Shown here: positions 1 through 8,009 of the stretch, piece after piece
How the letters are laid out: every line of letters starts with the position of its first letter
Numbering within the stretch: the first letter of the stretch is position 1
NCBI GenBank assembly: GCA_038217285.1
Contig: JBBQPO010000279.1
Location: 1 to 8,009 of the forward strand
Direction of reading: 5' to 3'
From: Chthonomonadales bacterium
Lineage (GTDB): Bacteria > Armatimonadota > Chthonomonadetes > Chthonomonadales > Chthonomonadaceae
DNA: 8,009 nt
Program-made: the position numbers

Positions 1-3000
1 CCTGTCCATTGGGCTCTCCTTGGGCTGGATTTCTCCCCTTACAGAGTAGCCGCGAAAGTGACCGGAGGTGGGCCATTTTAGAGTATCGAAGTGGACCAAT
101 TTACGGTATCGAAGTGGGCCAGTTTATTATATCAAAACCAATGATATAAGACATCGAAAAAGGGCGTGGGAAGACATGCTTCGGCACTACTGAACATCCA
201 TCTCCAACTTGCTCATAAGAAGGATTACCAACCAACAGGCATAAAATACTCAACAGTCTGAACTGCAGCAGGCCATAGCTCTACTGGACAGTGCCGCCCC
301 GTTTAAGGTATCTTCCTGGCAGGCTCCTCACTGCGTCTTCGTGCCTGGTTATCGGGCGCGGACAGAAGAAGATCCTGTAGGACCGGTTGGGTAGGGAGGG
401 CTGCTGTGCGGAAGTGGATCGTGCTGGGGATCGTGCTGCTGTTGGTGCTGGGGCTGGCAACGTGGTGGGCTCGCAACCGCAGGGGGGCGTTCCACGCCGC
501 CAACAAACCAACGCATATCTATATCGCGGATACCATGAATAACCGCATCGTTCGCATCGACGACATGATGGGCAAAGGCTGGAAGTCGCTGGGAACGGTG
601 GCGAGCACAGAGGCCAACCATTTCGATAAGCCACATAGTCTCTACGTCGACGAAGATGACCATATCGCCATTGCCGATACGGGCAACTGCCGAATCGTAC
701 GCATGGACGATATGACCGGACTGAACTGGCAGATCTTCGGCCGACGCGGCGATGGCGCCTCGCAGTTCAATCAGCCGGCCTCGATCTTTGTGGACGGTAA
801 CGACCATCTCTATATCGCCGACCGCAACAACGACCGCATCACCGCCACGGACGATATGGCCGGAACGCACTGGATAGAACTCGGTAAGCAAGGAACCGGG
901 GTCAATGAGTTCAGCTTTCCGACCGGAATCTTTGTAGACGCCTCGGAACATATCTACGTTGCGGACACGATGAACCTCCCCAATAACACCATCAATAACC
1001 GTATCATTCGCATGGACGATACGTATGGCCTCAACTGGATCAGTTTTAAAGGCCCCTTTGCCACTCCCTCCGCCCTCTATGTCGACCACGCGAATCACAT
1101 CTATGTCGCAGACAGCCTCAATCACCGCATCTCTCGTATGGATGACATGAACGGGAAGAACCTGATGTTTCTGGGGAAACCGGGCGGCGGAGATCTGCAC
1201 TTCAACCAGCCAACCGGCCTCTTCGTCGATGATGACGGACGCATCTATATCGCCGACACCGGCAATGATCGTATTGTGCGTGTAGACGATATGACGGGCA
1301 AAGGCTGGGTCACCTTCGGAACTTCGGGAAGAGGCGCCCATCAACTCAACGCCCCTGGGGGCGTTTTCGTCCGCTAACGATCTGCGTGGTATAATAACTT
1401 AAGACGTACTGTTATCTGCAATAAGACTGGCTTTCTCAGCTCCTGAGTCCGCGAGGTGGAGAGCCAGAGAGGAACCGTGCAGCCCTTGGATGATCTCAAA
1501 ACCCGTCCGGTCATTTCCGTTATGGTAGTCGACGACCATGAGATATGGCGAGACGGCGTTCGGAGTATGCTTAAAGATACTGAATTTGAAGTCGTCGGCG
1601 AAGCGGCCTCCGGAAAGGAGGCGATCGAGACCGTTGGCGATATCCTGCCGCGACTGGTGCTCTTGGACATCCGCATGGCCGGCGGCGACGGATTCGAGAC
1701 GCTGACGGCTCTGAAAGCAAGCCGCCCGCAGATCTCGGTCGTCATGTTGACGACCTACAGCAATCCCACTTTCATGGCGCGTGCCGTGGCGGGGGGAGCC
1801 TCCGGCTATCTTCTCAAGGGTGTCAAACGGCAGGAACTCCTAGATGCCCTGCGCGCCGTGGCCGACGGGGAGACGCTGCTCTCAAGAGAAGACCTGGTCC
1901 ATTCACTGCGCTGTGTCAGCGACAATAGCCACGGGTCGGAGGAGCTGGCGGAACCGCTGACGCCAAGAGAAGTGGAAGTGCTTCGTCTCCTGGCGACCGG
2001 GCTTTCCAATCGGGACATCGCGTCCCTGCTCTTTATCGGAGAAGGCACGGTCAAGACGCACGTCGAACACATTATCGGCAAACTCTCTGTCTCCGATCGG
2101 GTGCAGGCGGCTGTCTGGGCCGCTCGACAGGGTCTTGTACAGACGCTCTGATTACGGGGAAGAATGCTCTCCACCGTGTAACGGCCCGCCTTCCAAAGGC
2201 GGGCCGTTACTCTGTTAGGCGGGAATACGGCGGTTTTGCCAGCCCCGATAGTCTCGCAAACCTCTCCGAAATCGTCCCGAAGATCCTTGGCATGCGTGCC
2301 CCTGGAGAGGGCGGTCTCTGCAGGGTCAATCGGGAACCGGAAATACGGCTCTGATTCGTGTGCCCTCCCCGGGAACGCTCCATATCTCAAAGCTTCCATG
2401 CAGCAGATTCACGTGCTCCGCCATGCTGTGAAGGCCCAGATGATTGTACTCCTTGCGCTTGGCCTGCGCCTCGAAGCCTTTGCCCCAGTCGCGTACCTCC
2501 AGCGTCAGACGCGAAGGACCGGACTGCGTGGCAGGCTCATTTCTCAACAGTACCTGGACTTGATCTGTTTCCGCGTGTTTACGGGCATTGGCGAGCGCCT
2601 CTTGCGCCACCCGATAAACGGCGGTTTCCAGAACCGTCTCGAACCGCTGGATCGGAATGTTATGGTGCAGTTCCGCCTTCTGCCAGCCTGCACGCAGCTT
2701 CTCTTCCGTCAGCAGTTGTTCCAAGGCCCCTGTCAATCCCAGATCATCCAGAACGAGAGACCTCAGGTTGTTGACCACGCGGCGCGCTTCGACCACGGCC
2801 TGAGAGAGGTATTTCAACCCCTTTTCCAGGTCTTCCGGCATCTGTTCCTGCGTCGCCCGGTAGCGCTCGGCATACGTGTCCATAAACGCCTGGGACGCCA
2901 TGACATACTGGGTTAAACCGTCGTGCAGATCATAAGCCATCGCCCGGCGTTCGTCTTCCAGCATATTCATAAAACCATGGGTCAGCAGTTGCTGTTGCTT

Positions 3001-6000: not shown

Positions 6001-8009
6001 CAGCGCGGCGGGAGCGCTCACCCGCCTGCTGAATATGGGGATCGAACCTTTTCTGATCACCTCTTCGCTGATCGGATCTATAGGGCAGCGGTTGTTACGC
6101 ACCATCTGCCCTAACTGCCGCGAATCCCAGCCGGTCGATCGCGCCAAACTGGCCATACTGGGCGATATACCAGACGCGAGGATTCCGGACACGCTGCCGG
6201 TCGGACGCGGATGCGAAAAGTGCGGAGGCCGTGGCATGAAGGGCAGAACCGCCGTCTATGAGCTTATGCCCATGACGGATACGATTCGCGAGATGGTGAT
6301 GCGGAACGCACCGACCGAGGATATTCATCATCAGGCCGTCGCCGCTGGAATGATCACTCTGCGCAACGCTGGCCTGGAGAAGGTGCTGATGGGACAGATT
6401 ACGCCCGATGAGCTGTTGCGCGTTCTGTTTTCGGAGGGGGTTTAACTCATGGCTGTGTTCAGTTATGTCGCCCGCGATCAAGAGGGTAATCAGCGTCTGG
6501 GTACGATCGAGGGGCGCGACCTGGGAGACGCCCGCGAAAACGTGCGTGCCCGCGATCTCTACGTCGTCACGATCCAGCGTAAAGCGGATACGAGCAAGCA
6601 GTTCTCGCTCTTTCGTAAAAAGAAGGTGAAACTGGGAGACCTCGTTGTGATGAGCCGCCAACTGGCCACTCTGTTCCGGTCGGGCATCTCGCTGTTGGAC
6701 TGCCTCTATGCCGCCTCTCGCCAGTCCGAAAGCCCGATGCTCGCCCAGGCGCTGGAGGGGGTGCGCCTGGCCGTCATGGGTGGCAGTACGCTGACCGATG
6801 CCATGAAACAGTTTCCCGACGTGTTCAGCGGAAAGTTTATCGCTCTGGCCCAAGCCGGCGAGGCAGGCGGTGTCCTGGACCAGACGCTGGAGGTGGCTGC
6901 CGATCAGTTCGACCGCGAGGCGGACCTTCAGGAAAAAATCAAGGCCGCTGCCGTCTACCCGACCATCGTCATGTGCGCCTGCGTCGGGGTCGTGATCTTC
7001 ATGCTGGTCTTCATCGTGCCAGTCTTCGCGACGGTTTACACGCAGTTCCACGCCAAGCTGCCACCTCTCACGACCCTGTTGATCAACGTCAGTGACGTTC
7101 TGTTGACCTACTGGTGGGCGGTGTTGATGACCGTGGTCGTTACCACCCAGTTAAGCAAGAGGTTCATTCGCACTCCTTATGGAATGCGGTGCTATCATCG
7201 CTTGCAGCTCAAGATCCCGCTGCTCGGCAAGCTGAACCGCAAGGTGGCAGTCGCCCGGTTTACCGAAACCTTCTCGGGAGCGGTCACGGCAGGCATTCCG
7301 ATCCTGCAGGCTCTCTCCGTCTCCGGCCAGACGACCGGTAACGTCATCATCATGGACGCCATCGAGCGAGCCGCCACGCAGGTGCAGGAAGGCGCTCCGC
7401 TGGCTCCCTCTCTGGAACAGTCGGGGGAGTTTCCCCCGATGATCATCTATATGATCGCCGCAGGCGAGCAGTCCGGCAGCCTGGATATCATGCTAGCGGA
7501 GATCACCCGGTTCTACAGCCGGGATATCGAGTATGCAGTCGGTAAACTCACGCGCGCCATGGAACCCCTGATGACCATTCTGATCGGTATCATCGTGCTC
7601 TTCATTCTGCTCGCGCTCTATATGCCGGTCTTCAATATGACCCAGGTCATTCAGAAGTAGACACCCGTTCTCGTGCGGGTCGAGACAAAATCTGCCGTTT
7701 CGCAGATGTCGCCGCGCTGTCCGCTCCGCTACAATAGAGCCATCGAAGCAGAGCCGGTCTGAATTTGAACACTATGTACGCGCTTCGTATTTACCAAGGA
7801 GGCTTCCATGTTTCGTAACCAACTGCGCACCGCCGCTCGAAACCGCAAAGGTTTCACGCTCATCGAACTGCTCGTCGTCGTTCTGATCCTCGCCATCCTC
7901 ATGGCCGTCGCCATGCCGCTCTACCTCAGCGCGGTCGCCGACTCTCAACTGAAGACCTGCCGCGCCAACATGCAGACCATCGCCAACGCCGTGCAGGCAG
8001 CCCGTACCA

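Follow-up and report, generated by a model that had tools for sequence, protein, structure and literature searches.

A palindromic promoter box and a candidate NarL-type reader for type IV pilus and c-di-GMP genes in Chthonomonadaceae

The contig analysed here over its full 8,009 nt (hereafter the window), from a Chthonomonadales bacterium, carries three copies of a 24-nt palindromic box, CAAAATnTGCCrTTyCGCAGATGT, which recurs in the same genome at a fixed distance from the −10 hexamer of genes for type IV pili and c-di-GMP turnover (class-1 box). We consider it likely, from the comparisons set out below, that the phosphorylated form of RR-A, a NarL/VraR-type response regulator encoded in the window, binds this box in dimeric form, with the dimer centre near −43, and works there as a class II activator. 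Alongside the class-1 boxes, which had been described before and are confirmed here, a sister box (class-2) and the regulator system linked to it, RR-B, are new to this work.

The first gene of the window encodes an NHL-repeat protein (406-1377, + strand; Pfam NHL, E 1.5e-31) and ends 78 nt upstream of the RR-A gene (1456-2151), also on the + strand. The two genes may be co-transcribed, and the same order, NHL then RR-A, recurs in locus L033 of a congeneric genome (G004). RR-A combines a receiver (REC; Pfam Response_reg, 1.4e-25) with a GerE helix-turn-helix (HTH) domain (6.1e-20). Convergent with its gene and divergent from pilB lies the gene for HK-A (2326-4500, − strand), a sensor kinase with PAS-like, GAF, PAS, HisKA_3 and HATPase domains (Pfam; HisKA_3 7.4e-9, plus HATPase_c). 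Two class-1 boxes separate HK-A from pilB. The one facing the kinase gene (4565-4588, − strand; PWM score 29.4) has 5 mismatches to the consensus with the palindrome ATCTGC-N6-GCAGAC retained, and 20 nt after it stands TATAAT (4539-4544, − strand), the −10 hexamer of the kinase promoter. The other (4655-4678, + strand; 0 mismatches, PWM score 41.6) belongs to the pilB-pilC promoter, whose −10-like hexamer CATACT (4698-4703, + strand) lies 19 nt after the box and 30 nt before the pilB ATG. pilB (4733-6445, + strand) encodes a type IV pilus extension ATPase with an MshEN N-terminal domain (Pfam T2SSE 2.8e-135, MshEN 3.2e-18) and pilC (6449-7660, + strand) the platform protein (T2SSF 1.2e-55). 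The third box (7686-7709, + strand; 0 mismatches, PWM score 42.6) sits in a pilin promoter and is followed after 20 nt by the −10 hexamer TACAAT (7730-7735, + strand); the pilin gene itself (7808-8008, + strand; N_methyl 1.3e-10) is present as its 5' part and runs off the contig.

The 24-nt consensus and its three window copies (4655+, 4565− and 7686+), as given in the preliminary description, were borne out. The core ATNTGC-N6-GCANAT, with at most 1 mismatch, matched the window at 4567, 4659 and 7690 against an expectation of 0.28, and 0 of 200 shuffles of the window reached 3 core matches. Written as a dyad, the class-1 box is a 22-bp imperfect palindrome, AAATnTGCC-RTTY-sGCAGATgT. The genome to which the window belongs contains 24 class-1 boxes: all 18 sites listed earlier were recovered, and six were added (contig:position and strand C67:2607+, C370:4174−, C49:246−, C3:14039+, C10:6290+ and C18:6182+). 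PWM scores of the real sites ranged from 28 to 43, as compared to 14.7 for the best match in the reversed genome. The box on the HK-A side is conserved at the same place in congener G002 and in metagenome locus L182, and the box upstream of pilB in G001, G002, G003 and G004.

Every class-1 box points toward a downstream ORF starting 25-250 nt after it. In 20 of the 24 cases the box is followed by TANNNT, at an offset of 19 nt in 8 sites and of 20 nt in 12, against a background of 2.0% over four offsets, in agreement with the 19-20 nt spacing previously claimed. The remaining 4 boxes carry CATACT, CATAAT or CAAAAT at an offset of 19-20 nt and, when such weaker hexamers are counted, the −10 lies 19-20 nt after the box end at 24 of 24 sites. 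The hexamers are of the housekeeping type, TAnAAT, with no −35 consensus; the reported lack of a −35 also stood, a sigma-70 scan of 4400-8009 having returned 0 full promoters. If the −10 hexamer is assumed to span −12 to −7, the box centre would fall near −42.5 to −43.5, ~42-44 bp upstream of the inferred start; activator sites of class II promoters are centred at about −41 to −45. Judged from the sequence, the class-1 box would occupy the place of the −35 element.

By Pfam, the class-1 targets in this genome comprise pilB-pilC, 5 pilins, a pilT-like ATPase and the HK-A kinase gene, whereas only 3 of the four GGDEF/HD-GYP targets previously claimed were found (on contigs C67, C137 and C153). 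Other boxes head a FecR/CHASE2-cyclase operon, a second NarL-type regulator (RR-C) and several secreted or function-unknown proteins. An ECF-type sigma gene is located just upstream of the box at C18:11245, an isolated case among the 24 boxes. In the loci examined from G001-G004, the ORF after the box matches a box target of the window's genome by BLASTP in 31 of 46 cases; the figure reported before was target orthologs at 15 of 19 congeneric loci.

The 22-nt class-1 pattern (at most 1 mismatch) gave 10, 13, 7, 14 and 6 matches in the 5 genomes of the genus, 0 in 56 others and 0 in the control. The concentration of the box in these five genomes, for which counts of 15, 19, 7, 21 and 6 had been given, is thereby retained, the figures differing because the patterns differ. 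Confinement to a single genus was not sustained: a looser class-1 pattern matched 8 of 68 genomes of the order, namely 5 of 5 in the window's genus (g1), 2 of 2 in genus g8 and, with a single match, one genome elsewhere (G061); it was in g1 and g8 that the surroundings of RR-A-clade genes could be viewed. The G061 site lies beside a Fic-domain gene and an unknown gene, on a 7-kb contig in which neither RR-A nor a pilus gene was found and which is uninformative.

The best solved relatives of RR-A are VraR (3e-42), NarL and DevR. Its receiver has the phospho-acceptor aspartate ('lvllDirm' aligned to VraR 'lilmDllm'), and its GerE HTH is similar to the DNA-binding domains of LiaR, VraR and NarL (E 1e-14 to 1e-15). 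RR-A shows the features of the NarL/FixJ family, that is, a receiver, a GerE/LuxR-type HTH and an adjoining HisKA_3 kinase. The Pfam search returned Response_reg and GerE only. Neither an autoinducer-binding domain nor the AAA+ domain of sigma-54 activators is present, and TAnAAT at −10 sets the promoters apart from the −24/−12 type used by PilR-type (NtrC, sigma-54) regulators. No N-terminal hydrophobic segment was found in HK-A, which is probably cytoplasmic. Full-length matches to HK-A occurred in only 4 of 61 genomes, all within the window's genus, and we propose it as the partner kinase of RR-A.

The class-2 box has the core ATCCGC-N6-GCGGAT and the same spacing to the −10 as class 1. Boxes of the two classes differ at ~3 of 24 positions, mainly by one base per half-site (C/G versus T), and hybrid sites between them exist (C339:564 and C370:4227). 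The class-2 targets are tandem Usp genes, a nitroreductase, P-type ATPases and a ferredoxin, a DosR-like stress set, and the pattern is present in 32 of 61 related genomes, with 2 control matches in all. It was found in 17 of 32 RR-B genome loci (1.6-5.8 kb), typically directly past the RR-B stop codon or ahead of the kinase gene, at a frequency that would be ~1% per locus by chance (arithmetic from ~14 sites in 6.2 Mb). The kinase of RR-B, HK-B, has a PAS-GAF-HisKA_3-HATPase architecture. By content, the sister system fits a DosR-like dormancy regulon, with its NarL-type regulator, GAF-containing HisKA_3 kinase and Usp/nitroreductase targets. The window's genome holds ~14 class-2 boxes and no RR-B gene was found in its 95% complete assembly; RR-A might read both box classes there, or an RR-B gene may sit in a gap.

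Box classes and regulator clades do not cross in ~100 loci despite identical recognition helices. When regulators were arranged in a tree, T-core boxes were found near them in 9 of 12 rows of the RR-A clade (support 100/99, 95 and 93 in three trees) versus 0 of 37 rows on the RR-B side; the clade members G003_C72, G057_C151 and G013_C488 lie on contigs too short or broken to show a box. Throughout the RR-A clade the recognition helix is directly preceded by Glu-Gly-Thr (EGT type), where RR-B mostly has Glu-Ser-Thr. Among 9 metagenome loci of the EGT type, 3 had a T-core box and 0 a C/G-core box at a PWM score of at least 20, whereas in the 56 RR-B-type metagenome loci a C/G-core box was present in 30 and a T-core box in 0. 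Glycine versus serine before the helix was dropped as a marker of specificity, five Ser-Glu-Gly-Thr metagenome regulators having fallen on the RR-B side, two of them followed by a weak C-core box. The recognition-helix string TVKTHVEHIIGK is itself common to RR-A and RR-B, which counts against the RR-A assignment.

RR-A stays beside boxes through four gene orders, one of them a pilB/pilin cluster of another genus. The window's genome and G001 share the order RR-A, convergent HK-A, two boxes and pilB; G004 has RR-A, a box and a PAS-GAF sensor unlike HK-A; in G002 an HD-GYP gene and an RR-A-clade gene diverge from two boxes; and genus g8 shows pilin, box, pilC and pilB on one side, and box, RR-A, two boxes with pilins and a GAF-HisKA_3 kinase on the other. 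The order regulator, kinase, box and pilB, said to be kept in the genus, was seen in G001 and, on two broken contigs, in G003, but in neither G002 nor G004. In G002 (98% complete) the kinase, box and pilB lie together with no REC-GerE gene found at the side of HK-A, and the only adjoining ORF (227 aa) showed neither BLASTP similarity to RR-A nor a Pfam domain. The RR-A-clade gene of G002 forms a long branch and the boxes near it are degenerate, one with a C-core left half. It should be considered that a regulator gene adjoining a box can be a target instead of its reader, as HK-A and RR-C are, and that congeners and both genera are kin, the number of independent events being small. With this in mind, three independent comparative lines, namely the linkage of the sister box to RR-B, the restriction of T-core boxes to one clade and the four gene orders, support the preliminary assignment of the neighbouring NarL-type regulator as reader. 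The kinase half of that proposed pair received weaker support: HK-A is box-driven and of the matching HisKA_3 type, but G002 has HK-A with no regulator gene at its side, and there a different kinase accompanies the RR-A-clade gene.

We regard it as improbable that RR-B reads both box classes in the genus, RR-A being merely a target or having a different site. The shared recognition-helix string would allow it, as would boxes that differ at so few of their 24 positions and grade into the two hybrids, yet 24 class-1 boxes occur in a 95% complete assembly devoid of a detectable RR-B gene, T-core boxes are missing beside RR-B genes in all 56 metagenome loci and all 37 tree rows, and 54 of 61 relatives, many carrying RR-B, have no match to the looser class-1 pattern. 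Quite improbable, too, is an autoregulated reader in the form of RR-C (C3:14985-15662 of the window's genome). Its gene lies ~950 nt downstream of the box at C3:14039 on the same strand, and its G001 homologue (62% identical) is the first ORF after a box scoring 41.3; however, RR-C has a different recognition helix (SISRKTVELHRA) and shares only 30-33% identity with RR-A, and one would not expect such a protein to read a box so nearly the twin of the RR-B box. Moreover, no RR-C homologue was found at E ≤ 1e-45 in genus g8, though class-1-like boxes precede pilB and pilins there, and homologues 58-62% identical occur in G018 and G034, both without the class-1 pattern.

Readers from outside the NarL family were considered as well. 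CRP/FNR-type sites are likewise palindromic and 22 bp long, their two 5-bp half-sites being 6 bp apart and their centre near −41.5, a geometry which fits the class-1 box, and the regulon includes c-di-GMP enzymes and a CHASE2 nucleotide cyclase. Nevertheless, a regulator of another family, such as a CRP/FNR-type dimer, perhaps responsive to a cyclic nucleotide, appears very unlikely: of the 8 HTH_Crp_2 matches in the genome (~5 over the cut-off) none corresponds to a gene adjoining a class-1 box, and the tracking of each box class with its own NarL-type clade would go unexplained. That clade-to-box match is equally unaccounted for if an alternative sigma factor itself recognises the box as an extended upstream promoter element, an idea to which the missing −35, the fixed orientation and spacing, the asymmetric central RTTY and the ECF-type sigma gene near C18:11245 lend themselves. 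We consider it highly improbable, given a −10 of the housekeeping TAnAAT type, a 22-bp dyad that suits a dimer and not sigma region 4, and a sigma gene adjoining just 1 of 24 boxes. Hardly credible is a palindrome that serves as a hairpin (terminator or RNA element) or is a dispersed repeat, and not a protein site. A terminator scan did pick out two boxes, each as a weak stem-loop with a T-run behind it on the opposite strand, but this is the strand opposite to the neighbouring genes; at the variable n (A, C or G) the third stem pair is lost with no compensating change, the box-to-−10 spacers differ in sequence and are thus not repeat copies, and the fixed distance to the −10 would have no explanation. 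The hairpin/terminator reading was rejected on these grounds.

Activation by RR-A from the box, as proposed, would resemble that by TraR/LuxR at tra/lux boxes in the GerE-type HTH dimer, the 18-22 bp inverted repeat and the 6-6-6 layout, and the tra operator given in a preprint, ATGTGC-N6-GCACAT, shares its outline with the G-variant of the class-1 box. In one study, class II tra/lux-type sites are placed ~45 nt upstream of the start, overlapping the −35, and their central 6 nt are described as making no contacts, yet as mattering for activation (PMC3907764). Unlike TraR/LuxR, RR-A has a phospho-receiver instead of an acyl-homoserine-lactone-binding domain, with kinase control proposed as opposed to a quorum signal, and the class-1 targets are pilus and c-di-GMP genes. 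RR-A would thus act like a TraR-type activator at the box, yet its predicted domains set it apart from the LuxR/TraR family.

The DosR/DevR-DosS/DosT system of mycobacteria is similar in content alone: the DosR regulon resembles the class-2 targets (Usp, nitroreductase, P-type ATPases and ferredoxin) and DevR is among the solved relatives of RR-A, while the box sequence is, we assume, not the DosR motif. The hosts here are Armatimonadota, and the copy in the window is predicted to control pili, not dormancy genes. DosR itself is described, in one report, as contacting bases through three residues in and before the recognition helix (PMC4082495). VraR/LiaR match RR-A over its full length (E 3e-42) and share the same TVKTHV start of the recognition helix; they serve cell-envelope stress operons in Firmicutes, and the comparison made here is between the proteins. 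PilS-PilR and FimS-AlgR are, as proposed for HK-A and RR-A, two-component systems that adjoin pilus genes and control pilin expression. However, PilR is an NtrC-type sigma-54 activator and AlgR belongs to the LytTR type, whereas RR-A has neither domain and the class-1 promoters show a sigma-70-type −10.

On the reading that we prefer, HK-A, itself a box-driven HisKA_3 kinase, would most likely phosphorylate RR-A upon a presumed signal. The phosphorylated RR-A dimer would bind the 24-nt box at the −35 position and recruit RNA polymerase to promoters without a −35 of their own, a class II activation as with TraR at tra boxes, and the box of HK-A would add positive feedback. The RR-A system would be a diverged copy of the order-wide pair formed by RR-B and its PAS-GAF-HisKA_3 kinase. 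We give an even chance to a history in which a DosR-like stress two-component system was duplicated within Chthonomonadaceae and one of the two copies, together with a kinase of its own, came to command type IV pili and c-di-GMP turnover, mainly via a one-base change per half-site (C/G to T) plus a change outside the recognition helix.

We know of no previous work on gene regulation in Armatimonadota, most members of which are uncultured. A literature search found no case of pilus regulation in this phylum or by a NarL-type regulator, which does not imply absence from print; NarL-type activation of pilus genes from sigma-70 class II promoters, as proposed here, would differ from the textbook PilR/sigma-54 and AlgR schemes. 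These results provide, for one lineage, a testable promoter code and a named candidate regulator for surface motility/adhesion genes and c-di-GMP signalling, and they set beside it, as its counterpart, an order-wide 'parent' regulon (Usp, nitroreductase and related genes). Should the duplication and rewiring be right, no earlier master switch of pilus expression would have been predicted in Armatimonadota than RR-A. RR-A and RR-B also make a useful case of how paralogous NarL-type regulators keep their sites apart, and the proposed duplication and rewiring, if correct, would represent a natural, closely matched regulator-site pair showing the insulation of a new regulon from its parent.

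Analysis of ORFs and Pfam domains in the window, one whole contig (C279) of the G000 draft genome (6.2 Mb, 60% G+C, 459 contigs), placed an NHL-repeat gene (406-1377, +) before the gene for the REC-GerE response regulator RR-A (1456-2151, +), which converges with that of HK-A, a GAF-PAS-HisKA_3-HATPase kinase (2326-4500, -). A gap of 232 nt, between positions 4500 and 4733, separates HK-A from pilB (4733-6445, +) and pilC (6449-7660, +), and after another 147 nt a pilin gene starts at 7808 (+) and leaves the contig end. The core palindrome of the class-1 (T-core) box, ATNTGC-N6-GCANAT, was found three times in this sequence against 0.28 matches expected, and none of 200 shuffles reached three. 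The corresponding 24-nt boxes precede pilB (4655-4678, +) and the pilin gene (7686-7709, +) and face the HK-A gene (4565-4588, -). On the strands opposite to two of these boxes, weak terminator-like hairpins with a short T-run were flagged (4567-4584, +; 7690-7707, -), probably a side effect of the A-rich flank on the 5' side of the box.

Throughout G000, 23 sites differed from the consensus at no more than 4 positions. A position weight matrix (PWM) built from 22 sites, read by coordinate, returned 24 class-1 sites scoring 28-43, the best score in the reversed genome being 14.7; these comprised all 18 sites listed in the preliminary description and six new ones. In 20/24 sites the box is followed by a TANNNT hexamer, beginning 19 nt behind it in 8 and 20 nt behind it in 12, compared with 2.0% of random positions, which bears out the fixed spacing proposed earlier. 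This hexamer is mostly TACAAT, TATAAT or TAGAAT, and the remaining four sites carry CATACT, CATAAT or CAAAAT at the same offset. A sigma-70 scan of positions 4400-8009 detected no complete sigma-70 promoter. If the hexamer is assumed to span -12 to -7, the dyad centre falls at about -42.5 to -43.5, which on this numbering would be the place of a -35 element. The central RTTY is kept in both this box and its class-2 sister, in one orientation relative to the -10. Judged from sequence, the box is well supported, as is its role in promoters, and both are very probably genuine.

Taking the first ORF after each class-1 box as its target, the G000 set included pilB-pilC, five pilins with an N-methylation motif (on C279, C198 and C49, and two on C67), a pilin-like ORF without Pfam match (C119), a PilT-like ATPase of 427 aa (C305) and the HK-A gene itself. 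Four GGDEF/HD-GYP genes had been claimed for the regulon; we counted three in G000, namely a Reg_prop-GGDEF-HD gene (C137), a PAS-GGDEF gene (C153) and a PAS-GGDEF-HD gene that is second in a box-headed pilin operon (C67). Further targets were two double-zinc-ribbon proteins, a TPR protein, an ankyrin protein, a sacsin-like protein of 1619 aa and several proteins without family, some of them with signal-like N termini. At C18:6182-9557 (fetched locus L001:1183-4557) a box heads a FecR-domain gene overlapping a CHASE2 adenylate/guanylate cyclase gene, from which the regulon may reach into cAMP or cGMP signalling. Elsewhere on this contig, the box at C18:11245 heads the gene of a 273-aa protein that belongs to no Pfam family and has a signal-like N terminus; immediately upstream of the box, in the same orientation, an ECF-type sigma-70-family gene (C18:11383-12168; L001:6384-7169, minus strand) ends. 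The pilin promoters at C198:3675-3740 and C67:17780-17845 match exactly from the box through the spacer to the -10, and the N termini of the encoded pilins are near-identical, reflecting either a recent duplication or one locus assembled twice. Another strong box, C67:2607-2630 (L005:1108), scores 40.9 and precedes TATACT; over 450 nt downstream its strand shows no convincing ORF, an alpha/beta-hydrolase gene lies on the opposite one, and the box could drive a small or non-coding transcript. In loci fetched from four congeners, the ORF headed by the box matched a G000 target by BLASTP for 31 of 46 boxes, mostly pilins and pilB, some of the 15 misses being due to crude ORF choice (the G001 pilB box, for example, was scored as having no ORF).

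A 22-nt pattern with at most one mismatch gave 10, 13, 7, 14 and 6 matches in the five genomes of the genus (G000-G004); it was absent from 56 other relatives, with no control match. A looser pattern (AAATNTGCC-N4-SGCANAT, 0 mismatches allowed) was found in 8 of 68 genomes of the order, with one control match: the five of the genus, both genomes of a second genus (g8) and, at a single site, G061. The T-core system therefore extends beyond one genus, contrary to the earlier claim. The PWM scan also uncovered a C/G-core sister box (class 2), built like class 1: CACAATCCGCCATTTCGCGGATnT. Its core is ATCCGC-N6-GCGGAT, the main changes from class 1 being A to C at position 3, T to C or G at position 8 and A to G at position 19, and TAnnAT follows after 19-20 nt in 6 of 10 strong sites. 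In G000, class-2 boxes lie on C339 (427-, 564-, 659+, 1704+), C154 (9134-, 9187+, 11247+), C143 (618-), C238 (1360+), C1 (55196-, 56187+), C7 (28137-), C52 (543-) and C31 (28707+). Their targets are four tandem-Usp genes, a nitroreductase-like gene, two P-type ATPases, a YflT-type stress protein, a ferredoxin/Rieske pair and a PAS protein running off a contig end, a content that we take to resemble that of the mycobacterial DosR regulon; the class-2 set has the look of an order-wide, DosR-like stress regulon. Allowing up to 2 mismatches, the class-2 pattern was matched in 32 of 61 genomes, the controls giving two matches in total.

Most of the genomes with the class-2 pattern encode close RR-A homologues (57-73% identity), nearly all directly 3' of, and in the same orientation as, a PAS-GAF-HisKA_3 kinase gene (the sister pair HK-B/RR-B). 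A class-2 box with a PWM score of at least 18 was present in 17 of 32 RR-B loci of 1.6-5.8 kb (9/21 and 8/11 in the two locus sets), usually upstream of HK-B or with its start no more than about 150 nt past the stop codon of RR-B. As G000 holds about 14 class-2 sites in 6.2 Mb, we calculated a chance occurrence of about 1% per locus. Moreover, 15 of the 17 genomes with at least 4 class-2 pattern matches carry an RR-B-side homologue, the exceptions being G012 (70% complete) and G000. Box variants beyond these two classes exist: in the metagenome contigs L226 (2633-2720) and L227 (843-930), an RR-B-side regulator with Gly before the helix is followed by AAATACGCC-GTTT-GGCGGAC, then 19 nt and TATGAT, a box scoring below the PWM threshold.

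In regulator trees, RR-A of G000, G001, G003 and G004 formed a supported clade separate from RR-B (support 100/99, 95 and 93 in three trees), which also holds one G002 gene (contig C23), g8 genes and two short-contig genes (G057, G013). Members of this clade adjoin T-core boxes in four different arrangements. G000 and G001 share that of the window; in G004 the order is NHL gene, RR-A, box and a different PAS-GAF sensor; in G002 two boxes lie between the divergent HD-GYP and RR-A-clade genes, with a REC-HisKA_3 kinase after the regulator. In g8 (two genomes and one metagenome contig) one strand reads pilin, box, pilC, pilB, and the other box, regulator, box, small ORF, box, pilins, GAF-HisKA_3 kinase. 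Using RR-A as query we recovered 79 metagenome contigs, of which 65 loci were kept after dropping 1 duplicate and 13 with less than 57% identity or no readable helix. The 56 RR-B-type loci had C/G-core boxes in 30 cases and T-core boxes in none, and the nine loci with Gly before the helix had T-core boxes in three and C/G-core boxes at threshold in none. Five of the six boxless 'Gly' loci were placed on the tree, all on the RR-B side, and in two of the six a weak C-core box follows the regulator gene. In the final tree, all nine T-core-adjacent regulators fell within the RR-A clade of 12 and none among the 37 on the other side, counts behind which stand few evolutionary events, as neither neighbouring genes nor congeners nor sister genera count as independent samples; the three boxless clade members sit on broken or very short contigs. 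The recognition-helix string is identical in RR-A and RR-B. According to a review (PMC4082495), three residues in and just before the recognition helix of DosR contact bases. Gly/Ser before the helix failed here as a specificity marker, 'Gly' loci occurring also on the RR-B side.

The preliminary description had proposed the adjacent RR-A/HK-A pair as reader of the class-1 box. For RR-A, clade linkage, phylogeny and the parallel sister system make this role likely. HK-A is moderately likely to be its cognate sensor, because different lineages of the RR-A clade have different kinase partners; full-length HK-A matches were found in 4 of 61 genomes, all within the genus. The gene order described as kept in the genus holds in G002 for the kinase, its box, pilB, pilC, box and pilin, but there the kinase is followed by a gene that does not encode a regulator. 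RR-A could also read both box classes in G000, whose assembly has class-2 boxes but lacks an RR-B gene, the next most similar regulator being 40% identical. Fragments similar to HK-B sit at three contig ends, kinase at C348:4641-5282 and C423:2935-3309 and a box-driven PAS gene at C339:1-234, and the HK-B/RR-B locus may therefore be broken or missing in the draft.

A weak candidate for reader is RR-C, a second NarL-type regulator that is a conserved class-1 target in G000 (C3:14039-15662; L011:1040-2663) and G001 (C50:238-1113; L169), with paralogues on G000 contig C58 (67% identical to that on C3) and several in G001 and G003. However, its recognition helix (SISRKTVELHRA) differs from that of RR-A, g8 yielded no RR-C homologue at E <= 1e-45, and genomes lacking the class-1 box do carry one. 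Its position behind the box in two congeners suggests a regulatory cascade. CRP-family proteins are a further rival, their genes existing in G000, but none adjoins a class-1 box there. RR-A is preferred over both.

By analogy with GerE-type activators, phosphorylated RR-A dimers would bind the dyad, covering the -35 position, and recruit RNA polymerase with the primary sigma factor. Since the HK-A gene carries its own box, positive feedback would be implied. HK-A has PAS and GAF domains and no N-terminal hydrophobic segment, which suggests a cytoplasmic signal. As described for TraR (PMC3907764), its sites are 18-bp inverted repeats; where the promoter is of class II, the box is found some 45 nt upstream from the start, overlapping the -35, and its six central bases are uncontacted yet needed for full activation, presumably via bending. 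This description fits the class-1 box closely; here the RTTY centre is conserved. The grouping of pilus and GGDEF/HD-GYP genes under one box suggests a switch between surface-associated states. The kind of system proposed, a two-component class II activator, is ordinary; what is new is its use for pili and c-di-GMP in Armatimonadota, together with a clean parent/daughter pair of regulons.
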